The notes under the pieces: model-generated
Databases searched by the model: none
Told to the model about the DNA's origin: nothing
The model's input: the letters and a program-made list of their open reading frames with translations, nothing else
Position numbers and translations under genes: made by a program
Source: a virus
Lineage: Duplodnaviria > Caudoviricetes
DNA length: 64,000 nucleotides
Reading direction: 5' to 3' (one strand)
Virus record (IMG/VR): IMGVR_UViG_3300008954_000001
Shown: piece after piece, positions 5,141 through 49,699 of the stretch
Numbering within the stretch: the stretch's first letter is position 1
Layout of the letters: the number at the start of each line of letters is the position of its first letter

Positions 5141-5172
5141 ATTTTACCGACATAGGGGCAAATCAGCCCCCC
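5141..5172 (-). promoter_or_regulatory. phage early-type promoter motif
   Basis: GGGGGGCTGAT-N11-TCGGTAAAAT on minus strand. Confidence 0.8.
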
Positions 5173-6135: not shown

Positions 6136-6168
6136 GGGGGGGCTGTTTTCCCTATGGGTCGGTAGTCT
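6136..6168 (+). promoter_or_regulatory. phage early-type promoter motif (divergent partner of 6067-6099)
   Basis: GGGGGGGCTGTT-N11-TCGGTAGTCT. Confidence 0.75.
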
Positions 6169-25465: not shown

Positions 25466-26824
25466 TCAAAACATGGCGTGGGGGAGCTTCATTCCTAATA
25501 GATCCGCAGCCTTAAAAAGGTTGTTGCGGTGCAGCGAGATATCCCAATTAGGGTTCTGGATACTTTGTGAAAGGCGGTTTAGGGCGGCTCGTTCGTTGTT
25601 GGATAGCTTTAGCTTCTGCATGAGGTGAATCCCAACATCCGCCATCATGGTAGCCGTAGCCGTATCCCCTTGTTTACTAAAGGATCGTGCCAGCTTGAGG
25701 TATGCCCGCCTGTCTAAAATGCCCCATAGGATGTTGTTGTCTGAGGCTGCGGTCTTGGTCTGCCCTAACGCCTTAACGTGTCGAAGTAACTCCGAGTTCG
25801 ATCTGGCTACCGCAGAAGGGTTTATTCTTCCATGGTTATACTTCTTGAGGAATCCGCTCAAGACACCATTAATCTGATCCCTGAAAGCTAAGGCAAACTC
25901 CTCCCAATCCATTCTTTGCGGCGTGATATGAAGGTTTGTCGTACCCCCCACACCAATTGAAAGCCACACCTTGTACTCCCCACCAACTAATCGTTGAAGC
26001 GCATCCCTTTGTTTGTCTCCGTCTTCATGGCTTAAAGCCCCAAGAGGCCAAACGAAATCGGGCTTAGATGCAGTTTTTTCGTAGGTGCGTCCAAGCACAC
26101 TGGCGGTCATACACAGGGACATCTGCTTGGAGAGGTAGCGGGAGAGGGTCTTGAGTTCTCGGACAGCCTTAGCGGGATCAGGGCGGTGCCGTCCCGTGCC
26201 TTGGATTCGATTTAGCGGGCCACGAATCTTCTTCCTGATTTCTTTTGCCATCGAAGAGGTGCCGAGTTCACTGGTCAGCGAATCGGCTGCTTGGAGGTCT
26301 TCGATTACTGCGCTCATATCCTCATTAGCCGCATCAGCCACGGCTTCGTTGATCTTTTCTACCAGCTTACGGAGGGCGGGCTTACACGAAAGGATGCTCT
26401 GGTTCTGCCACGGGCCAGCGTTACTCTCTAACCCAACAGGGTATTGACCCTTGGGGAGTTGCTTGCCATCTGGTGTCTTGTGCCGTCTGGAATCGAAAGC
26501 ATCGATGTACTTGCTTTTTCCGTTCATTTTGGATCGCTTGATCTTCAACATTGAGGCACGAGCAGAGTCGAGATCCCGATGCTGCTCAATCTTGGTGCGG
26601 AACTTATCACCGAGTCGGCCCCATCGACGGATGAGCTTGGCCGATCCATCACGGGCTACGAGAATGAGCATTTCGTAGTATTTGGACTTGTTTGATCCAG
26701 CCTCAATTGCATAAAGCATAGCGGCTTCGTCGGCCATTACCTTCGACTTGGTAAGACCCTCACGCTCTAAGTAGGGCTTCCCCGCCGCCACTTTCTCGTA
26801 TCTGCTGATTACGTTCTCAATCAT
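25466..26824 (-). CDS. WGR-domain protein with tag motifs
   Basis: KYYEMLI...LIRRWGRLG...A...K..K...Y is a WGR domain; ATG 26824 with AGAGG SD; NVISRY, KVAA, KTAS, KTAA motifs. Confidence 0.7.
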   Translation of the reverse strand: MIENVISRYEKVAAGKPYLEREGLTKSKVMADEAAMLYAIEAGSNKSKYYEMLILVARDGSAKLIRRWGRLGDKFRTKIEQHRDLDSARASMLKIKRSKMNGKSKYIDAFDSRRHKTPDGKQLPKGQYPVGLESNAGPWQNQSILSCKPALRKLVEKINEAVADAANEDMSAVIEDLQAADSLTSELGTSSMAKEIRKKIRGPLNRIQGTGRHRPDPAKAVRELKTLSRYLSKQMSLCMTASVLGRTYEKTASKPDFVWPLGALSHEDGDKQRDALQRLVGGEYKVWLSIGVGGTTNLHITPQRMDWEEFALAFRDQINGVLSGFLKKYNHGRINPSAVARSNSELLRHVKALGQTKTAASDNNILWGILDRRAYLKLARSFSKQGDTATATMMADVGIHLMQKLKLSNNERAALNRLSQSIQNPNWDISLHRNNLFKAADLLGMKLPHAMF

Positions 26825-26928
26825 TTCATCCCTCTGCCAATGCCTATTTCGGTATGGTTTCCGTATAAGAGGTAGCAACCATTGTTGCTTATACAGAAAC
26901 AACCGAACATCGAACGGCGGGAAAGACT

Positions 26929-28569: not shown

Positions 28570-28600
28570 GTACTACCGACAAACGGGGGAATTAGCCCCC
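28570..28600 (-). promoter_or_regulatory. phage early-type promoter motif
   Basis: GGGGGCTAAT-N11-TCGGTAGTAC. Confidence 0.8.
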
Positions 28601-29941
28601 TTTCAGTACCTTAATTCCCCAACCGAGAGGGCATAGGTCAGTTAGGCTTGGCGGCTCCTTGAAAGTGAAGCCCAAACCCGCTTGTTTCATCACATGGGTT
28701 TCGTCATCGTAGGTTCCCATCGTCTTGTGGGCCTTCCATGCGGTGACTTGGCCGGGACTAACATCCAAGAGCATAGCGACTTGGCCTACGGGCAAGCCCA
28801 CAGCCAGATCGAGGGCATAGTGCTTCAATGCGGCCATACCGAGGCTTCGGCTCAAGTTGTTGTATTTGAGCAAGCTGAAGTTGTCTACGAGCGTCTGAGA
28901 GAGTTGGGCCATGTGGCCCTTACCCGTGACGGCAAGAACGAAGGTGACGAAGGGGGTGCCTTGTTGTTTCGTTGTGCCGCTGTGGTAGCCGAACACATCG
29001 AGGACTTGAACATCCAAGCCGTAGGGCATGACCATCGCTGTTAGGACTTCCTGTACAGCCATGGCTCGGATCATGGCTGAACCAAGCCCATTGAGCTTGT
29101 TGTTCGTAAAGCCCGAAATGTCTTCGCCCCGACTGTTCTTTGGCTTGTTGATCGCCCACACATCTCGCAGTCGGCGTTCAGCCAGTACCAGCAGTTCTCG
29201 TGGGTCAAAATCTCCGTGCGCCATCATCTTGGCGGCAATAAGGCGTTGCTGTGCTTGAAAAGTCTTTGCGTATTGTCGCCGCAATTTCCGAGGGGCCTTC
29301 ACAACGATCTTCCCGTTGTACCCTGTGTGGAACTCACGGCCTTTCAGCATCGTGACCCCGATCATGACGGGCTTCATAGTGTAGGGGCTGGTCCCTCCGA
29401 AGATGACATCCCCAAGGGTCTTGCAGTTGTCCACGCTAAGACCGCCACAAAAATCCATATGGGCGACGTTGTACCGAGTGTGCGGCATCTGTGCGATAGC
29501 TCCCGCTTCCCCGAAATCGAACTTGGGGTGCAACCCCAAACCCAAGCACTTCATCTTCGTATCTGTGATGGCTTTGCGGGAAACATCAACCGCTACGGCC
29601 TTGCGCTCATCCATCTTCCAACCGTTGAGGGTCAGAATATCCCCGCCTTCTCCCGCAAGGACCAATGCGCCTTCGTAGCGTTGTTCCAGTAATGTCATCC
29701 AAGTCCGAATAGAGTTCCACATTCGGACACGGACAATCCGTTTACCCGGACTGTCTCCCTTGTACGTGGATTCCTTAGACTTGACGGAAGGGGCAATCGG
29801 AAATGAGTCGTTGGTTCGCAATGTTTTCGACGCTCTCGGAAAATAGACTGTTGGTGAGATTGATTCCCCACAAGAGTTATACCGAGAACTGTCGAAATCA
29901 GCCCCCCCTATAGAAATAGGGGGAAAGTTCAGACACCCCAA
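28592..29941 (-). CDS. methyltransferase-like (Rossmann) protein with C-terminal HTH; true start probably near 29820
   Basis: ALVLAGEGGD, AVAVD, HMDFCG; C-terminal VAMLLDVSPGQVTAWK HTH; promoter motif lies inside the first annotated codons. Confidence 0.55.
   Translation of the reverse strand: MGCLNFPPISIGGADFDSSRYNSCGESISPTVYFPRASKTLRTNDSFPIAPSVKSKESTYKGDSPGKRIVRVRMWNSIRTWMTLLEQRYEGALVLAGEGGDILTLNGWKMDERKAVAVDVSRKAITDTKMKCLGLGLHPKFDFGEAGAIAQMPHTRYNVAHMDFCGGLSVDNCKTLGDVIFGGTSPYTMKPVMIGVTMLKGREFHTGYNGKIVVKAPRKLRRQYAKTFQAQQRLIAAKMMAHGDFDPRELLVLAERRLRDVWAINKPKNSRGEDISGFTNNKLNGLGSAMIRAMAVQEVLTAMVMPYGLDVQVLDVFGYHSGTTKQQGTPFVTFVLAVTGKGHMAQLSQTLVDNFSLLKYNNLSRSLGMAALKHYALDLAVGLPVGQVAMLLDVSPGQVTAWKAHKTMGTYDDETHVMKQAGLGFTFKEPPSLTDLCPLGWGIKVLKGG
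29876..29908 (-). promoter_or_regulatory. phage early-type promoter motif
   Basis: GGGGGGGCTGAT-N11-TCGGTATAAC. Confidence 0.8.
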
Positions 29942-30504: not shown

Positions 30505-31152
30505 TTAGAAGGAGTGGATAAGGGCCTTACCCGACCCGTTAATGAACTGAATGCCCATTTCAGACACAGACCCTTGGGTCTCGTGAATGTGTCCAAAGAA
30601 GTGAGCACAAACCTTGTGATTCTGCCAAGTTAGGGTCGAAGTGATCTGAGCGATCCCCCCACCGTGAGCCTTGTCATCCAAGATCCCCGCCGCTGGTGCG
30701 TGGGTCACAAGTACGTCAGGGTCGGATGCAAACACACCCTCCACGATGGAAGTGAAGTCAGGCCCGAAGGTCTCACCGTTCCACTCACCTGCGATCCAAG
30801 GCACTTCCCTACAACCAGCGAAGGTCAAACCATTCGTGTTCACAGGGCCGTCAGACAGGTCGTAAGCCTCTCCACCAGCATCCCGAACCAGAGCCGCCAG
30901 ACACACATAGTCGTGGTTGCCACCAACGCTAATCAGGGGCCGACCATTGAGAGCCTTGACGATTCGCTCTCCAAGGTTCTTGAACCCAAACCACTTGGTC
31001 TGGTGCCGTACCTCAATAGCCCTCTCGCCACGGGTCTTGTTAGGGAAGAAGTCCCCCGTGTCAATCCACAGGTCGTACCCGTCAGTAGCCAGTGCCTTGA
31101 GCGCAACCTTGTACTGTCCGTGCAGATCCGAAGTGTGAAGAATGTTGACCAT
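30505..31152 (-). CDS. metallophosphoesterase (Icc/MPPED-like)
   Basis: SDLHG, DTGD, GNHD, VTHAP, GHIHE; ATG 31152 with GAGAGG SD. Confidence 0.9.
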   Translation of the reverse strand: MVNILHTSDLHGQYKVALKALATDGYDLWIDTGDFFPNKTRGERAIEVRHQTKWFGFKNLGERIVKALNGRPLISVGGNHDYVCLAALVRDAGGEAYDLSDGPVNTNGLTFAGCREVPWIAGEWNGETFGPDFTSIVEGVFASDPDVLVTHAPAAGILDDKAHGGGIAQITSTLTWQNHKVCAHFFGHIHETQGSVSEMGIQFINGSGKALIHSF

Positions 31153-31177
31153 GACTACCTCTCTTGTCCTCTCACTT

Positions 31178-31208
31178 AGACTACCGATAAGAACCCTAAT
31201 CAGCCCCC
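31178..31208 (-). promoter_or_regulatory. phage early-type promoter motif
   Basis: GGGGGCTGAT-N11-TCGGTAGTCT. Confidence 0.8.
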
Positions 31209-31308
31209 ATTTTTGAGGCCCCAGAAACCCCTTTACTACGTAAAGGGGTTTCTGAATTGATCCCAGATCCTTCGGGCCGATTGATCTCGGCTGTTCGGGT
31301 TTCCCTGT

Positions 31309-31339
31309 GGGGGCCGATCTATATGGGGGTCGGTAGACC
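31309..31339 (+). promoter_or_regulatory. phage early-type promoter motif driving the RNA genes
   Basis: GGGGGCCGAT-N11-TCGGTAGACC. Confidence 0.75.
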
Positions 31340-31437
31340 AAGTGTAAGCGAAAGGTCGTGGGTTCGAGTCCCATCCCGTCATAAGGCGGGTAGCTCAGTT
31401 ACCGCTGTGCGGAGGGAGAGCGTTCACTTACACTTGG
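31338..31437 (+). ncRNA. circularly permuted tRNA-like RNA (Y RNA/YrlA-like)
   Basis: Order is helix 5' strand, variable loop AGGTC, T arm GTGGG-TTCGAGT-CCCAT, acceptor hairpin CCCGTC-ATAA-GGCGGG, TA, D arm GCTC...GAGC, helix 3' strand; CCAAGTGTAAG 31338-31348 is the exact reverse complement of 31427-31437. Confidence 0.75.
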
Positions 31438-31512
31438 GCCACTTAGCTCATCAGAGAGAGCACCTGTTTTGCAATCAGGAGGTGACGGGTTTGAGTCCCG
31501 TAGGGTCCACCA
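31436..31512 (+). tRNA. trnA: tRNA-Ala(UGC), CCA-encoded
   Basis: GGGCC(A)CT/AGGGTCC acceptor with G3:U70, GCTC/GAGC D stem, CCTGT-TTTGCAA-TCAGG anticodon arm, ACGGG-TTTGAGT-CCCGT T arm, ACCA end. Confidence 0.85.
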
Positions 31513-31552
31513 ATCATTATCAGTGCGGTCACTCCGCCGCACACCTCCAACG

Positions 31553-31598
31553 GAAAAACCCTCTGCCCCCTATCTTCGGGTCAGGGGGTTTTTCTTTT
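31553..31598 (+). terminator. intrinsic terminator after the RNA genes
   Basis: AAAAACCC..GCCC-...TTCG...-GGTCAGGGGGTTTTTCTTTT imperfect hairpin with T tract. Confidence 0.6.
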
Positions 31599-31610
31599 AG
31601 GGTAAGCCAA

Positions 31611-31640
31611 GGGGCTGTTCCAAAATGGAATCGGTAGACC
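31611..31640 (+). promoter_or_regulatory. phage early-type promoter motif
   Basis: GGGGCTGTT-N11-TCGGTAGACC. Confidence 0.7.
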
Positions 31641-31717
31641 AAGCACAAGGTAAAACGCCTTGTATCTTTGACAACTGAATATGAGCCAAAACTAAACCAA
31701 AAGGAGGTGATGAGAGA

Positions 31718-33137: not shown

Positions 33138-33407
33138 ATGACAGAGTGGTTTGACAGAGAGCCGGGAAGCCCCGTGGCACAAGGCAAAGATGACCCCACA
33201 ATGCTTTTAGTGGGCGGGAACAAGCCTGATTGGGTGCGTTTGCCTCGTGAGCTTGGAGGGGCCAAAGCGAAAGTTTTGGATATTCTTGCTGGTCCGTGTC
33301 CGAAATGCGATGGCGAGACCGTTAAACACTTTGTACTCGATCTCGATGTTGGGGTGGCCGAATGCCCCAAAGAAGGTTTTCTTTGGTATGCGACAAAGGG
33401 GGGCTAA
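33138..33407 (+). CDS. zinc-ribbon hypothetical protein
   Basis: CPKC...ECP; ends GG-stop inside the next promoter motif. Confidence 0.6.
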   Translation: MTEWFDREPGSPVAQGKDDPTMLLVGGNKPDWVRLPRELGGAKAKVLDILAGPCPKCDGETVKHFVLDLDVGVAECPKEGFLWYATKGG

Positions 33408-33429
33408 TTTTTAGCCCTGTCGGTAGTCC
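33398..33429 (+). promoter_or_regulatory. phage early-type promoter motif
   Basis: GGGGGGCTAAT-N11-TCGGTAGTCC. Confidence 0.8.
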
Positions 33430-36461: not shown

Positions 36462-36810
36462 TTTGGAAAGGCGTATCAGCATAGCCCTAACGCTGCTGTT
36501 CGCTCTGAACGTCACAGATGCTTTACTTACAATTGTTTGGGTACGCCTTGGGTTAGCCAATGAAGCAAATCCTCTTATGGCTGTTTTGGTAACAGACCAC
36601 ACCGTACTTTTCGTATTGGCTAAAGTGTTCTTGGTGTTGGCCGGGTGCTTCCTTTTATGGCGTTTCCGAATACAACCTCTTGCACGACACCTACTGGCAG
36701 TCTGTGTGCTGGCTTATGCGCTTGTAGTAGCGATACACACCCATATGATCCTTCAACTGGATCAAGTCCCACTCCAAGAAATCCAACGCTGTATAGAAGC
36801 GGCCTACTGA
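36424..36810 (+). CDS. DUF5658-family membrane protein (start probably slightly downstream)
   Basis: LNVTDALLT...GLANEANPLM...AK motif. Confidence 0.7.
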   Translation: MGCFYRHSFRGIDLERRISIALTLLFALNVTDALLTIVWVRLGLANEANPLMAVLVTDHTVLFVLAKVFLVLAGCFLLWRFRIQPLARHLLAVCVLAYALVVAIHTHMILQLDQVPLQEIQRCIEAAY

Positions 36811-39800
36811 ATAGTGGCCACGTCTTCGGGGGAGCACTCGACTTCATGGGGGTGCTCGGTTTGTGGGTGAGCAACAAAGGTAACGCCCATCTTCTCCACA
36901 AAACTTTGGAAGATGCTCATATGTTGGTCTTCCCAAACATGAACAACATCAAAGCCATGTTTGACATGGAGTTGGTGGATGACCTTCTTCTTATAGCTTG
37001 AAGTGTCGCCCCCTTTATTGAGGTACACCTCATCGAAGTTGAGTCCCGCACTCTTCAAGAGTTCTGGCACACGCCAACGGAACCTCCCGTCCATCCTACC
37101 CGTACAACAGATGGCCCAAACATTTGGGTTCCCTATGCTTCGTTTAGCTTCCGCTACGGTTTTACCATCCCACCATTCCTTACCTGGAGCGAGAGGAACA
37201 CACGGAGGACTTAGAGATAATTGGTTTCCCCACCACCCCTTTTGATCCCACCACGAAGGTTTATGTGGGGATCGAAACAACGTCCCATCGAAATCAAACA
37301 AGTGTAGTTCTTTTCGGCCACTGGCCCTTAGACGGCGGTTTACCACCTGTTCAACCATGCCGGGATCAAGAACCTCTCCTTGCCTCCTCGCCAGAAAACC
37401 CACCTGGCCTCTCAAAACCGGACCATTGATCTTTGTGTATCCTCGACCAAGTAATTTGTTGCTGTAGGCAGGGGAAACACCGTTCACCGCAACCGTAATA
37501 TGGGCGACACCCTTGTCTTGTCTTTGAATCCCTCGTGGTTGCACAACAACCGCTTGCCCGTGCTCGTCTGCGCCGTACCCAACCACTTTGAGTGCAATAC
37601 TGGCCCCGACAGGGAGATCCATGATTTCTTTATCGGTAGGCCCAAACTTGATGGTCATGTGGTGCGCTTTCACAGTTGGGTGAAGCGGCCCCACATTCTT
37701 TGTCCACCATCGCAGCAGTGCTTGAGAGTCAGACAAGAACACACCTGAGTACACAGCCTGACCAGCAGTTCTGCTAACGGCGAAGTTTTCGTATTCCCCT
37801 TTGATTACTTTCTCGAACCATTCCTTGTGCTCTTTAGGTAGGGTCTTGGTGGCTCGCATAGAAGCGGCTTCGCAGAGGTGCTCTTCGGCATCGGAAGCTG
37901 CGTAAATGGACGGAAACTTGAGTTTGTTCTCCGACTTCTTAAACCAGCCGAAGAGCGTCATTCGTTCTACTGTGCCTATCTCTTTCTTTGTGGCGATATC
38001 TACAAGATGGGCGGCTCCCCCATTACTCCCGTACTCGCTAACCATGACCTCTTTATTGTTGACCTGCATAGGCAACACTTCGCCCACTTCGGGCAACTTG
38101 GTTTCCACCCTCTTTGTGCTCAAGTCGGAATGGTATTGCCGCCACCTTTGCCAAATCGCCTTATCGAGAAACTTGTTCTTATAGCGATGGGTTAGTTCGT
38201 GGATCAGGTTTTGAACAGCACTGACTTCGGAGATGCCTTTACCACTGACCCGAAAGTAAACGGCATCTTTGGAAGGCATGTACCAAGCAGCCCAATTTGG
38301 TCTGCCGATCTTTCCAACGATGTACACATCCCCATAAAGGGTACGAGCAAACCTCGGCAACCCTGTTCCTCGCTTCGATTTTCGGACAGCCTTTTCAAGA
38401 ATCTGAGAGATCCGTGCTCTTTCCGCTTCGTCAGCACCAACCGTGTCGTGAACTGTGAATGGCCCAACTGTCCAAATGCCCCCACCTTCGCTGGATCTGT
38501 CTTTCCATTTGATACTATCAATCAGGAGGGGCCAACGCTTTTTGTTCGTCCGATACCACTTGTCATAACCTTGCCTTGGTCCTTTCCCCCTGCCGTACCG
38601 CACGGAAAAAAGCCTCGCAAGCATCTCAACACCTTTAGCCCTCCTTGCGGGGATCGCCTTCTTATCGATGACATGCTCAAGCCATTTCCGCCCGATTGCG
38701 TAAAACCTTTGCCACGCCATCCACAGTTCTGCCGTATTGCCCAACCCATGAGCTTCGTTGTAGTCGATGCGACTTTCAAACTCGTAGTAGGTCATCACAA
38801 GGGCCTCGGCCACCAGTGAAGGCGTAGCTTTTTTATCCCACTTCTCCATAACGGTGCCGTCATGGATGTAGGAGTCCTCCATCTTAGGGACAAGGTACTG
38901 TGAGCGTAGCGTTGAGGACTCGTGGCCTACGACTTCTGCGGTCGCTTCAAGGGCTTTCGTGAACTCGGCTTTGAGGATTTCGTCTTTCTCTTTTCGGTCA
39001 GTGGGGAGGGTCTTGCCCTTCTTACGCTGTTCTTTGAGTTGCCTGACCATCTCATCGTTGGCTCGGAATCCACGAATGTCTTTAGCGGTGATGTCGTACT
39101 TCTTTAGGTACTTGTTCACATCCTCTGCTTTGACAATACAATCGTCGCCTTCACACAGGACGGTATCTGTACCCGACTTGCCTTTGAGGGCTTTCTTCAA
39201 CGCTGAAACTGTTGCGTGGTCCGCAACAGTCTTCTTTTGGTCTACGCCTGACTTGCCTGTGTAAGTGAGGGTGGCTTTGCTGCCTGTGATTTTTACATGC
39301 TTGGCTTGAAGCGTGGTGACCCCGAAATGGCCTCGGTCTTTTACGGATTGGTCGTTGCCTACTCGCTCACAGGTTTCGTCCATCAGGGCGACTGCAAGGG
39401 CTGTCAAACGGACTTCGGGATCATCGGATTTGAGATCAGACTTGTACTGTTTCCGCAGGTCCAGGATGTTGCCTTTAAGTTTTTGAATCCGCTTCGCTTT
39501 TTCACGGTTGCGGTGGTCCACCTGTCCTTTGGAATACTCGTAGACGGTGGTCTTCCCAGACCCGTCAGCTTTATCCACCTGTTTCTTCTTCTTGAACTTG
39601 GCGGCTACTCGGCTGGCGGCTGCGTGAAACGTAGGCTGATAGTCAACTCTGGGCCATTTCACGAGGTTCAGGTCTTGATTGACCAACTCAAACTCATCTC
39701 CGACCTTGGGCTTAGGGTAAGACCAATACTGCTGTGCCATGAGTCCGGGGTGTCTCCCGATAGGCTCCAAGTCCTTCGGGTGGATACGCCTGATTTTGAA

Positions 39801-39932
39801 GACCACTTTATCAACGTAGTCGGGATCGGTGGGGTGTGTCTCGATCCTCAAAAGAGCAAGCTCGGAACCTTTCAAGGTCTTGAGGATCTGCCCCTTCCTG
39901 AAACCAGGGTTCGCATCGTATCGGGTGCTCAT
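36804..39932 (-). CDS. multidomain protein: topoisomerase IB + HExxH peptidase-like + 2H phosphodiesterase + HAD phosphatase
   Basis: TopIB pentad R190,K227,R287,H337,Y346; HELTH 578-582 plus EEHLCE; HMT(758) and HIT(811); DFDGT(880). Confidence 0.8.
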   Translation of the reverse strand: MSTRYDANPGFRKGQILKTLKGSELALLRIETHPTDPDYVDKVVFKIRRIHPKDLEPIGRHPGLMAQQYWSYPKPKVGDEFELVNQDLNLVKWPRVDYQPTFHAAASRVAAKFKKKKQVDKADGSGKTTVYEYSKGQVDHRNREKAKRIQKLKGNILDLRKQYKSDLKSDDPEVRLTALAVALMDETCERVGNDQSVKDRGHFGVTTLQAKHVKITGSKATLTYTGKSGVDQKKTVADHATVSALKKALKGKSGTDTVLCEGDDCIVKAEDVNKYLKKYDITAKDIRGFRANDEMVRQLKEQRKKGKTLPTDRKEKDEILKAEFTKALEATAEVVGHESSTLRSQYLVPKMEDSYIHDGTVMEKWDKKATPSLVAEALVMTYYEFESRIDYNEAHGLGNTAELWMAWQRFYAIGRKWLEHVIDKKAIPARRAKGVEMLARLFSVRYGRGKGPRQGYDKWYRTNKKRWPLLIDSIKWKDRSSEGGGIWTVGPFTVHDTVGADEAERARISQILEKAVRKSKRGTGLPRFARTLYGDVYIVGKIGRPNWAAWYMPSKDAVYFRVSGKGISEVSAVQNLIHELTHRYKNKFLDKAIWQRWRQYHSDLSTKRVETKLPEVGEVLPMQVNNKEVMVSEYGSNGGAAHLVDIATKKEIGTVERMTLFGWFKKSENKLKFPSIYAASDAEEHLCEAASMRATKTLPKEHKEWFEKVIKGEYENFAVSRTAGQAVYSGVFLSDSQALLRWWTKNVGPLHPTVKAHHMTIKFGPTDKEIMDLPVGASIALKVVGYGADEHGQAVVVQPRGIQRQDKGVAHITVAVNGVSPAYSNKLLGRGYTKINGPVLRGQVGFLARRQGEVLDPGMVEQVVNRRLRASGRKELHLFDFDGTLFRSPHKPSWWDQKGWWGNQLSLSPPCVPLAPGKEWWDGKTVAEAKRSIGNPNVWAICCTGRMDGRFRWRVPELLKSAGLNFDEVYLNKGGDTSSYKKKVIHQLHVKHGFDVVHVWEDQHMSIFQSFVEKMGVTFVAHPQTEHPHEVECSPEDVATIQ

Positions 39933-40186
39933 TCTTGCTCCTCATGCCGAAACCAGACTCGGAACAGTTGAATGGCTTTCGTCTGCTTGCGCCCTTTGGG
40001 AATAGGGTCTACCAAGACAAGGGGGTTCCCTTTGGGGTCTTTGTCGAACCCAACAATCACACCAGCCTTGTTCTTGTATTTGCCGTACCACACCTGATCT
40101 CCCTCATTCAGCGTAAGCGTGAGGGCTTCTTTCTTCCGTGCGTACTTAGCAGCTACTCTGGCAGCCCAAGGGTTCTCTTTCATCAC
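39929..40186 (-). CDS. small SH3/KOW-like protein with RVAAKY tag
   Basis: WAARVAAKY then GDQVWYGKYK...GVIV. Confidence 0.6.
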   Translation of the reverse strand: MMKENPWAARVAAKYARKKEALTLTLNEGDQVWYGKYKNKAGVIVGFDKDPKGNPLVLVDPIPKGRKQTKAIQLFRVWFRHEEQE

Positions 40187-42678
40187 ACGCCCTCGTGTTC
40201 GAGGATGGACTTGATTTCTTCTTGGGTCAGCCCCTTATCGAATTTTGCGTGGGCATACTCAACGATCTTGCCGACAAACTGTTCATAAAGTTCGTCGCTC
40301 TTGCCCTCTTTAGCGAGGCGGATCATGTCCTTGTCTTCAAGGATGGTATCGATTTCGGTAGAAGCAATCGTAGATACGGCGTTGACCATCCATTCCACAG
40401 CACTTCCAATACCCCCAAGAGCACCCGTCCCGTAGTTCCCCACAGCTTCAGCCATCGACCCACCCGCAAGCGTAGCTACATCCTGAGCGCCTTCAGCGTG
40501 GAGAAGCATCTTATCCCCTACCGCCGTGTACGCACCGATGCCGATATGGAGCGTAAGGGAGTTCAGAAAGGCTTTACCACCCACGGCGGCAAAGCCACCC
40601 GCAGTTGAAATGCCTCCGGTGGCAATACCGACACCTGTCGCTACTGCTATACCTCCCGCATAGATAGCGGAGCCGTATAGAACATCCCTCTCGCTGGCCT
40701 CTCCTTCACTACATTCAGTTTTGGAGCCTTCCGCATCACACCCCTTGGGCCATTTCTTCTTCTCGCTTGAAGGCACCCGCCCCTCTTTGATGCAATCCAT
40801 CAGAATCGTGGGTGTGTTGATAGCAACATTCCGAACTTCTCGAACGGTCGAGCCAGCCAGCTTTTTAACGATGTTTACAGGATTTGCGTGTTCCAGAATC
40901 TTCTTAGCAAGGCTTTTTGATTTCTTCTCGTCTGTGATCTGCGAAACGGCTTCTTGACCTTCCTTGGTCTGAATAGCTTTCGCTGTGGAGGCTGGCAGCT
41001 TCGTACCCTCAGGCACCCCCGCCGCTGACAAATGGGCTTTAGAAGGTGCGCTACCACCCCCAGAACCACCCCCGCTTTGGCTCTTTACCTTATGGTCACG
41101 CTCTTTGGCATTCGGGTGATCTCGCAGATGTTTCTTCATCGCCTCTTCGGTGGCGTGTTCCATCGCATAGCGATGAGCGACCTTTTGAGCCGAAAGTTTG
41201 AGTAAATAGCGTTCGGTTACTCGGTCTTGGCTGGTCTTGATCCCAGCTTCGGCAAGCTCATCTTCCAGTTCGTCGAGGATATCTTGCAAGGAAGTGGCTC
41301 CTGTGGGGGAACTTGACCCAACCTTCCCCATAGCTTTGTTCATAAATAGTTCCGGGTCGAAAGACAATGTGGGCCTCCCTTGCAATACAGCCCTTTCAAG
41401 AGAATCCTCTACTGAAGCTGTTGATAGGAAACGTAAAATAATCTCAGGATTGATATACGACTTACGAGTAGTATTCGCAGAGTCGTGAGACAAAGCGGCT
41501 TGCGCCACATCAATAGCCCTATTCAAAGTCTCCACAATCGCTTCCACCACCCTCTGTTTCAGGTCGGTTTTCGCTCCTGTGGAAAAGGCTTTAATCCGAT
41601 CAAACAAGGCGGCTTGTTCGTCTCGAAGCGCATCTAAAACAGCTTCCGTAGCCCGTAACTTCCTAAAGTCTGTGGGGGAAACGTCTTTGAACCGCTCTCG
41701 AAAGTAGCGTTGAAGGTCAGAGTAGGTGACTCGTTGGCCCTTGCTGGTAACGAAGATGAACTTACCGCCCTTAGCCTTGTCGGTTTGGGCTTTCAGGATC
41801 TTGATGATTTCAGCGTCCGTAAGGGAAGCGAAGTTATGGCCCCCCTTCTTGCCCAAGAATTCCAGTTCGGCAAAGTTGTCTCGGATGAATCTAACGTGCG
41901 ATGGGCCAAGCGTAATGGCCCCAAACGTCTCGATCTCAACCTTTTCTCCGTTCACCGTCTTAATGGCGGCATTTCCCTCTTTACCGGGTCGGATGCCTGT
42001 CTCCATCATGATCGCAGTAATCAGGGCGGAGAGCTTGATGACCTCATCCCCTGACTTTAGATCCCGCTTCACCTGCTTGGCGATCTGGTTGTAATCCCGA
42101 ATCAGGTTGTGCATTTTGTCGATCTTCTTCCCAAGCGTCAGGTGTTCGTTCTCGAACCGATCTGTGATCCCTTGAACTTGCCCGTTCTCATCGACATCTA
42201 CGACGATGTTATCGGGCAAGAAATCTCGAAGCTCGGTGGGAAGCACTTCCCGCATAGGGCCTTGGGCTTCGGCCATTGTGATCGCTTGAAAGCCCTTAAA
42301 GGCTTGTTTGTGGACTTCTACCAGAGCATCCCGAATAGTTTTACCTTTTGTAAGAACATCACGGGCTTGGTAGAGGATGGCTGACCGCCATGAGTAGGCT
42401 TTGGGGTGGTCGGCTTCCTTGCCGATATAGGTGTCTAAGTATTCGAGAAAGATGGGGTTATTCTTCACCAACTTGACGAAAGCTCTGGCCCTGCGAGAGA
42501 TCGACCCCTTATCCCGACCAGGGTGCTCCACTTTTGCGGAATCCGCATAGGGCTGGAGGGTTTTCAGGAGTTTCTTGAACTCCACCCCCGCCTTGCGGAC
42601 ATGCTTCTCCTGATCTTTTTTGTCTCGTTTGTACTGCCGAGACTCGTTAGTCGGTACTCTTGCCATTCGCTCTCTCAC
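40183..42678 (-). CDS. topoisomerase IB catalytic-domain protein with N- and C-terminal extensions
   Basis: ETGIRPG, FGAITL, FLGKKG, DFRKLRA, LSH...RKSYINP keep the full R-K-R-H-Y set. Confidence 0.8.
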   Translation of the reverse strand: MRERMARVPTNESRQYKRDKKDQEKHVRKAGVEFKKLLKTLQPYADSAKVEHPGRDKGSISRRARAFVKLVKNNPIFLEYLDTYIGKEADHPKAYSWRSAILYQARDVLTKGKTIRDALVEVHKQAFKGFQAITMAEAQGPMREVLPTELRDFLPDNIVVDVDENGQVQGITDRFENEHLTLGKKIDKMHNLIRDYNQIAKQVKRDLKSGDEVIKLSALITAIMMETGIRPGKEGNAAIKTVNGEKVEIETFGAITLGPSHVRFIRDNFAELEFLGKKGGHNFASLTDAEIIKILKAQTDKAKGGKFIFVTSKGQRVTYSDLQRYFRERFKDVSPTDFRKLRATEAVLDALRDEQAALFDRIKAFSTGAKTDLKQRVVEAIVETLNRAIDVAQAALSHDSANTTRKSYINPEIILRFLSTASVEDSLERAVLQGRPTLSFDPELFMNKAMGKVGSSSPTGATSLQDILDELEDELAEAGIKTSQDRVTERYLLKLSAQKVAHRYAMEHATEEAMKKHLRDHPNAKERDHKVKSQSGGGSGGGSAPSKAHLSAAGVPEGTKLPASTAKAIQTKEGQEAVSQITDEKKSKSLAKKILEHANPVNIVKKLAGSTVREVRNVAINTPTILMDCIKEGRVPSSEKKKWPKGCDAEGSKTECSEGEASERDVLYGSAIYAGGIAVATGVGIATGGISTAGGFAAVGGKAFLNSLTLHIGIGAYTAVGDKMLLHAEGAQDVATLAGGSMAEAVGNYGTGALGGIGSAVEWMVNAVSTIASTEIDTILEDKDMIRLAKEGKSDELYEQFVGKIVEYAHAKFDKGLTQEEIKSILEHEGV

Positions 42679-49667: not shown

Positions 49668-49699
49668 GGGGGGCTGATTTGTTATCGAAACGGTAAACT
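49668..49699 (+). promoter_or_regulatory. phage early-type promoter motif
   Basis: GGGGGGCTGAT-N11-ACGGTAAACT. Confidence 0.7.

Follow-up and report, generated by a model that had tools for sequence, protein, structure and literature searches.

The closest described relatives of the RNA reported here are the YrlA RNAs, which are known from Salmonella, M. smegmatis and 22 phages (PMC4201824). Near their 5' end the motif GNCGAAN0-1G was published as the proposed contact to Rsr, and RNase P cleavage of YrlA was seen only with a 7-bp stem (Chen et al. 2014, PMC4201824). Y RNA-like RNAs of phages have been on record since 2014 (PMC4201824). A CGAA motif later served to find the Y RNA-like RNAs of the Thermus phage phiLo, and a phage Ro60–Y RNA particle has been characterized (PMC12135203). 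All Y RNAs with a tRNA-like domain that have been found and studied lie next to Ro60 genes, as the original search was confined to such sites. The minimal YrlA-class RNA described in the following is a variant on this known theme of phage Y RNA-like RNAs.

We analyzed a stretch of 64,000 nt (‘the window’) of a marine jumbo phage, whose genome exceeds 300 kb and which is also present in ENA scaffolds (281.8 and 170 kb) and JGI contigs. The nearest cultured relative is Tunturi_5, with 35% amino-acid identity on an exonuclease. For one site in the window the original prediction had described an RNA in which all arms of a tRNA are present in permuted order. We confirmed the fold described for the tRNA-mimic RNA at 31338-31437 (plus strand), which we regard as a real small-RNA gene: all elements were found by sequence reading, in the minimum free energy (MFE) fold and in the alignment to the Rfam YrlA model (Table 1). 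The predicted RNA is ~98 nt long and is encoded just 5' of a tRNA-Ala gene; it has the shape of a tRNA whose acceptor end is sealed and whose anticodon loop is missing. Folding of 31338-31437 gave an MFE of -43.8 kcal/mol (z = -4.6; none of 200 shuffled sequences was as stable) and a structure identical to the tRNA-like fold read by eye. The two ends form a terminal helix of 15 bp with a single C:A mismatch (C31349/A31426). All nucleotides of the tRNA tertiary pairs can be read in the sequence, namely U8/A14 (T31391/A31397), G15/C48 (G31398/C31357), the D-loop GG (GGG at 31414-16), the T-loop UUCGA (TTCGA at 31363-67, with T54:A58) and G26/A44.

Table 1. Features of the RNA locus and its surroundings (positions in the window)
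Feature	Position	Strand	Basis	Remark
Promoter-like element GGGGCCGATC-N11-TCGGTAGACC	31310..31339	+		directly 5' of the RNA; core of the copy 31310-31335
Other promoter-like copies (examples)	5145-5170 (-), 6139-6164 (+), 28574-28599 (-), 31182-31207 (-), 31611-31636 (+), 33400-33425 (+), 49670-49695 (+)	as given	pattern scan	
Predicted mature tRNA-mimic RNA (YrlA-like), ~98 nt	31338..31435	+	Rfam YrlA match, fold z, de-permuted cloverleaf	5' end uncertain within 31337-31346
Terminal helix, 5' strand	31338..31352	+		pairs with 31423-31437; stands in for the 3' strand of the anticodon stem
Motif AGCGAAAG	31347-31354	+		overlaps the 5' strand of the terminal helix; extends two bases into the variable loop
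Variable loop AGGTC	31353-57	+		C31357 = C48
T arm GTGGG-TTCGAGT-CCCAT	31358-74	+	sequence reading, Rfam alignment, fold	5-bp stem, loop UUCGAGU
Acceptor-like hairpin CCCGTC-ATAA-GGCGGG	31375-90	+		6 bp, tetraloop ATAA; G31386:T31379 wobble = tRNA position 3:70
TA (U8 A9)	31391-92	+	sequence reading, fold	
D arm (GCTC...GAGC), then G26	31393-421	+	sequence reading, fold	G26 closes the part 31391..31422
Extra D-loop hairpin CCGC-TGT-GCGG	31402-31412	+	sequence reading, fold	4 bp
Terminal helix, 3' strand	31423..31437	+		last two bases = G1 and G2 of tRNA-Ala
tRNA-Ala(UGC), CCA encoded	31436..31512	+	ARAGORN; Rfam tRNA 49.5 bits	
Terminator-like hairpin (AAAAACCCTCTG...CAGGGGGTTTTT)	31553..31597	+	sequence reading; pairing visible in a chance miRNA alignment	long, G+C-rich, followed by a T run
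Calcineurin-type phosphoesterase gene	start ATG at 31152	-		divergent from the RNA unit
117-aa gene 3' of the RNA–tRNA unit	bounds the intergenic region at 31667	+	ORF	
WGR-domain protein	25466-26902			
Topoisomerase IB fused to RNA-repair-type HAD domain (‘Swiss army knife’)	36804-39932	-	Pfam HAD_SAK_1, E 9e-12	
Second topoisomerase IB paralogue	40183-42678	-		close to the first

For comparison with true tRNAs we built an in silico test molecule, in which the acceptor loop was opened, the helix was closed with a placeholder anticodon loop and the D-loop hairpin was removed. ARAGORN folded this molecule into a canonical cloverleaf with G3:U70, and it reported no tRNA either in the de-permuted sequence that retained the 21-nt D loop or in the native sequence of the RNA. 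The native RNA has no free 7-bp acceptor end with a discriminator and no anticodon loop. Since its acceptor is sealed by a tetraloop and a plain helix of 13–15 bp replaces the anticodon arm, it is incapable of charging or decoding and cannot be a working or maturing tRNA. The missing anticodon loop also makes it unlikely that the RNA serves as a decoy for anticodon nucleases, one of the roles proposed at the outset.

A search with the Rfam YrlA model (RF02553), recommended in the original prediction, returned a full-length match over model positions 1–114 with 41.2 bits (E-value 1.1e-7 on 601 nt, rising to 1.1e-5 when the entire window was compared with all 4227 Rfam families). Among these 4227 families it was the sole match in the window apart from tRNA. 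The score falls short of the Rfam gathering score for YrlA of 69 bits, so that a default scan is silent. For better evaluation of this value we scored phage RNAs located immediately 5' of TROVE genes: four of them reached 40.2, 35.7, 35.5 and 34.9 bits, and three further TROVE-linked phage RNAs did not reach an E-value of 0.001. The 41.2 bits of our RNA thus equal or exceed the score of every TROVE-linked phage RNA tested. Two adjacent tRNA genes of Tunturi_5 produced a spurious YrlA match, of only 23.4 bits. As the TROVE-linked phage RNAs also lie below 69 bits, a sub-threshold score is normal for phage members; the Rfam threshold misses them, and such RNAs are therefore under-annotated in phage genomes. 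Together with the fold and the tertiary-pair nucleotides, this match supports the assignment of the RNA to the YrlA type, with a tRNA-like domain in circularly permuted order. It contains a single tRNA-like module (~98 nt) and not two tandem modules in ~380 nt, and DUF7873 gave no match in Pfam scans of the window ORFs of at least 190 aa or of the neighbouring genes. The Rsr-site motif given in the original prediction agrees with the published one (PMC4201824); AGCGAAAG is one base off it, and L092 and L113, two phage RNAs linked to TROVE, have the same one-off variant AGCGAA, as UAGCGAA.

Next, we considered how the RNA might be expressed. A promoter motif of its own had been proposed at 31309-39, and we indeed observed there a copy (31310-31335) of an element, GGGGC-N16-CGGTA, which occurs 17 times in the window compared to 0.34 expected copies and always with a gap of 16 nt. 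The consensus is GGGGCTRATT-N11-TCGGTAG, and the copy in front of the RNA fits GGGGCYRATY-N11-TCGGTA. Most copies are located just 5' of genes on the coding strand, and the bipartite element is likely to be the main early or middle promoter of the phage. As one copy ends at 31335-31339, the RNA owns a dedicated promoter-like copy. The intergenic region 31153-31667 contains, in this order on the plus strand, the promoter-like element, the RNA, tRNA-Ala and the hairpin with the T run; simple sigma-70 and terminator scans of the region listed nothing, this hairpin included. Behind the copy at 6139-6164 an ATG GAA CAG... begins 13 nt after the C of CGGTAG and reads as the N-terminus of a second metallophosphoesterase; if that ATG is the start, the mRNA would be nearly leaderless. 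A perfect 16-bp hairpin (CAGAAACCCCTTTACtacGTAAAGGGGTTTCTG) is located at 31220-31258 between two divergent promoters and could be a bidirectional terminator or an operator.

The transcription start of the RNA could lie anywhere within 31337-31346. The complementarity of CCAAGTG (31338-44) to CACTTGG (31431-37) argues for a start at or before 31338, and a sigma-70-like geometry would place it a few bases further 3'. At the other end, the tRNA-Ala gene had been described as abutting the RNA; the two are adjacent, but their ends overlap, because G31436 and G31437, which take part in the two outermost helix pairs, are G1 and G2 of tRNA-Ala in the ARAGORN prediction. RNase P could define the 3' end, as had been suggested, by a predicted cut at the 5' end of tRNA-Ala (31435/31436), in which case the RNA would end at U31435 with a helix of 13 bp. 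A contig from an oligo-dT RNA library (X15) spans only 31448-31599, not the mimic, and could be DNA; the sequencing-run contigs X6 and X7 do not cover the mimic either.

In order to assess conservation we searched IMG/VR, JGI metagenome contigs and GTDB genomes with DNA patterns, both exact and degenerate. None of the three contained a close relative; the same searches returned six other YrlA-like RNAs in JGI metagenome contigs and two other RNAs in GTDB genomes, one of which is a canonical YrlA in Cypionkella. A megaBLAST search with 2 kb of sequence against cultured phages gave no match. Of two loci with a homologue of the adjacent phosphoesterase, one (L001) carries tRNA-Ile, tRNA-Thr and tRNA-Ser and no YrlA-like RNA at the syntenic place, and the other (L002) carries nothing there. 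In three further assemblies of this phage the locus has an identical sequence, so that they add no variation. The single informative relative is a 264-nt contig from a hydrothermal-vent metagenome, which covers 31240-31514 with 13 substitutions and 21 gap letters and whose sequence we rebuilt from the listed differences to the window. It keeps the promoter element, the variable loop, both strands of the T stem and of the D stem, AGCGAAAGGUC, the tertiary-pair nucleotides and the tRNA-Ala; of the six acceptor pairs it retains five, among them the G:U pair. The only change in the T arm and variable loop is in the T loop (31368 G>T). The acceptor loop is replaced and lengthened, and 14 nt of the extra D-loop hairpin are missing, which leaves a normal D loop, AGTGGGA. 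In the terminal helix A31426>G turns the C:A mismatch into a C-G pair, C31427>T gives a G:U pair and an AAG insertion results in a 5-nt bulge. Covariation had been proposed as a check: the core stems are kept in this one relative, but no pair is altered on both sides (n = 1). A kept core with a varied periphery would, judged from one relative, be the pattern expected for a structured RNA selected on its tRNA-like core.

By regarding the tRNA-like domain more closely we observed features of tRNA-Ala. In tRNA numbering the acceptor reads G2 G3 C4 G5 G6 G7 with C66–C71, which yields G3:U70, and the D loop ends with GGGA, typical of tRNA-Ala. We compared the mimic, with the anticodon arm left out, with the tRNAs of the phage loci analyzed here (1069 distinct sequences). 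The best match was a tRNA-Ala, and tRNA-Ala made up 7 of the top 40 matches compared to a background of 3.8%; the signal comes from the 5' half. These sequence similarities suggest that the mimic may descend from a tRNA-Ala gene. The acceptor of the neighbouring tRNA-Ala is itself unusual, with G1-C72, G2-C71, G3:U70, C4-G69, C5-G68, a bulged A (31441) and two more pairs.

We then looked for a protein partner. The original prediction had noted that no Ro60/TROVE gene is found in the window; this holds, and it also holds for ~30 kb beyond it (~94 kb in total). A Pfam scan of the window ORFs of at least 190 aa plus smaller neighbours found no TROVE. A profile built from 12 phage TROVE proteins (leave-one-out controls 100%) gave a single match in the window ORFs of at least 180 aa, which spans 18 columns and falls on the MIDAS motif in a vWA lipoprotein. 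Outside the window, the preceding 10 kb showed no TROVE by Pfam scan or by the profile. The 10 kb that follow showed none by the profile or among precomputed Pfam matches, and the stretch from 10 to 20 kb beyond the end showed none among precomputed Pfam matches. The lack of a nearby Ro60 gene is unusual for the YrlA class. The proposal that the RNA captures Ro60 is weakened by this finding (no TROVE within ~41–50 kb on either side) and by the missing V arm and canonical helix with its bulge or internal loops. A Ro60 partner, from the host or from a distant gene, is plausible because the RNA has the AGCGAA variant seen in two Ro60-linked phage RNAs.

To place the RNA among other phage modules we scanned IMG/VR contigs with a loose pattern, consisting of a T loop followed 14–24 nt on by GTAGCTCAG. 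It was found at no fewer than 129 places in at least 120 contigs, and at least 22 places have an intervening closed hairpin of at least 5 bp, so that permuted tRNA-like modules are common in viral contigs. Twenty-one module-bearing viral records were searched for TROVE in six frames, with a positive result in 15, and in five of the six searched records that are at least 90% complete. In the TROVE-positive records for which coordinates were worked out the distance between module and TROVE is at most ~1.2 kb. The module is located 5' of TROVE on the same strand in 14 of the 15; in the fifteenth a weak, below-cut-off TROVE match lies 5' of the RNA. Many of the Ro60-linked RNAs carry a GNCGA(A) block ~40 nt before the T arm, then GGUUACUUC and then a YUAAY V arm. 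The searched records without TROVE comprise one complete genome of 144.8 kb, one of 207.7 kb (88% complete) and four fragments. Most of the eight modules for which TROVE was not found or not searched are inside tRNA arrays, and five of the eight carry CAGCAA; in the TROVE-less modules L021, L098, L047, L067 and L059, all in tRNA arrays, CAGCAA is placed ~35–45 nt 5' of the T arm. From their sequences, the modules with CAGCAA and those with GNCGA(A) and GGUUACUUC may be two sub-families with different partners. We also noticed that the tRNA array of the Tunturiibacter phage Tunturi_5 is followed by a permuted tRNA-like element which is not annotated (PP885688.1, 253901-254010; L130, 9402-9511). 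In this element the T arm precedes an acceptor-like stem whose loop is an insert of ~48 nt; the D arm comes next, and the anticodon-like stem (5 bp, CCCGG/CCGGG) is open. The complete genome of this phage (308.7 kb) contains no TROVE, and a gene for the ‘tRNA splicing ligase’ RtcB lies ~9 kb 5' of the element.

Among the genes around our RNA (Table 1), those for the phosphoesterase, the WGR protein and the topoisomerase–HAD fusion would fit a neighbourhood for the healing of RNA ends, of the kind that has been discussed for jumbo phages (PMC7824862). The 5' end of a long ORF at 28592-29941 (minus strand) is an artefact: a promoter-like element lies inside it (29880-29905), and the real product has 368 aa according to the ENA gene caller. 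In the Atlas this 368-aa neighbour matches hypothetical proteins of phages and has weak leads to methyltransferases, among them TRM (tRNA guanine dimethyltransferase), and a 583-aa protein has only low-TM, TPR-like Atlas matches. The proteins adjoining the RNA, including the 368-aa product, contain no Pfam family, a phmmer search of the neighbouring proteins against the PDB returned nothing, and by blastp no neighbouring protein is common to the RNA locus and the TROVE-less loci.

Taken together, we lean, with modest confidence, towards the reading that the locus encodes a minimal YrlA-class RNA which is made together with tRNA-Ala, is freed by RNase P and acts as an adaptor that docks a Ro60-type protein. 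We infer the following course for its transcription, processing and partner. The RNA would be transcribed from its promoter-like element as one unit with tRNA-Ala, and the transcript would stop at the hairpin 31553-31597. The RNase P cut would then free a stable tRNA-shaped adaptor of ~98 nt, with a full tRNA elbow, a tetraloop-sealed acceptor and a plain helix of 13–15 bp. The helix bearing AGCGAAAG would dock a Ro60-type ring protein, and the elbow may recruit or block an enzyme that handles tRNA or other RNA, in the way known for Y RNAs and PNPase. Taken by itself, the Ro60 partner, whether the host's or one encoded elsewhere in the >300-kb genome, has in our view a little less than an even chance.

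The alternative that survives best, which we nevertheless place on the unlikely side, is that the RNA is a tRNA mimic which acts independently of Ro60, solely via its elbow and its sealed, tRNA-Ala-like acceptor. It would titrate a tRNA-binding factor or divert it to another use, or it would work together with a novel phage protein. Candidate factors would be a modification enzyme, RNase P, the CCA-adding enzyme, AlaRS or a defence protein of the host which recognizes the shape of tRNAs. The empty ~94 kb, the lack of a V arm and of a bulged helix, and the retention of G3:U70 and of the GGGA D loop together with the excess of tRNA-Ala among the best matches all argue in this direction, as do the other large phages, complete genomes included, that carry modules in tRNA arrays and no TROVE in the record. 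However, our locus has no conserved neighbour protein in common with the TROVE-less loci, the small proteins next to our RNA are without a Pfam match, its AGCGAA motif matches Ro60-linked RNAs, and the host itself may supply a Ro60. A broader and decidedly doubtful proposal is that large phages carry Ro60-independent, non-chargeable tRNA mimics within their tRNA units, and that the one studied here is derived from tRNA-Ala and occupies a host factor that reads tRNA shape or alanine identity; such factors would be AlaRS, a processing enzyme or a sensor of tRNA that serves in defence or stress. If this is true, the tRNA-like module of Y RNAs is a free-standing effector.

It is also conceivable, and in our judgement very improbable, that the RNA has no role of its own and is a decaying duplicate of the tRNA-Ala gene or a structured 5' leader that aids folding or processing of tRNA-Ala. 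Its position next to tRNA-Ala, the features shared with it and the existence of just one relative fit such an origin, whereas the precise permutation, the tetraloop-sealed acceptor and the complementary 15-bp closing helix are not products of decay, the core is conserved while the periphery varies, and the architecture recurs in many phages. Finally, the RNA is almost certainly not a permuted tRNA gene (tRNA-Thr in the original prediction, an assignment we reject) whose transcript is circularized and re-cut into a working tRNA: all four arms are present in permuted order as this requires, but the 6-bp acceptor with its 4-nt loop has no discriminator or CCA, the one YrlA that RNase P was seen to cleave has a 7-bp stem (PMC4201824), the plain 15-bp helix of the two ends contains no bulge-helix-bulge or other splicing motif, and this helix is changed by indels in the relative, so that no fixed anticodon loop would result.

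The locus is also of practical value. A minimal RNA without a nearby Ro60 gene allows a clean test of whether the tRNA-like module needs Ro60 or whether phages use the Ro60 of their host, and with ~98 nt, one helix and one tRNA elbow it is small enough for direct binding and structural work.

Compared to known systems, the permuted order itself is shared with the permuted tRNA genes of the red alga Cyanidioschyzon merolae, in which the part for the 3' half precedes that for the 5' half and which mature into working tRNAs. Those genes have a processable acceptor linker and a splicing motif at the junction, whereas the phage RNA has a 4-nt loop and a long plain helix. With the YrlA RNAs it shares the order of T arm, closed acceptor-like stem-loop and D arm, the tRNA tertiary-pair nucleotides, a 6-bp acceptor stem like that of Salmonella YrlA and a CGAA-containing motif 5' of the tRNA-like domain. 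It differs from them in that the V arm (YUAY) and the internal loops are absent, the corresponding model positions being deleted in the alignment, and in that the CGAA motif lies inside a continuous 15-bp helix adjoining the variable loop and not at the base of the RNA. Further differences are the added D-loop hairpin, the location in one unit with a tRNA and the distance from any Ro60 gene (none within ~41–50 kb on either side). The Ro60-linked phage RNAs (those from IMG/VR and mycobacteriophages, and Yrl1 and Yrl2 of phiLo; PMC12135203) are likewise phage-encoded, and those from IMG/VR also score below the Rfam cut-off, at 35–40 bits. They are, however, located at most ~1.2 kb 5' of a TROVE gene on the same strand, and many have GGUUACUUC and a YUAAY V arm; the RNA studied here has none of these. 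The TROVE-less modules in tRNA arrays resemble it in being carried by large phages with tRNA neighbours and no TROVE found in the record, but CAGCAA and a V arm are present in most of them, and none is related to it in sequence. Our RNA thus does not belong wholly to either group: its tRNA neighbour and its distance from TROVE are as in the TROVE-less modules, its AGCGAA variant is that of the Ro60-linked RNAs, and the V arm and the internal loops of both groups are missing.
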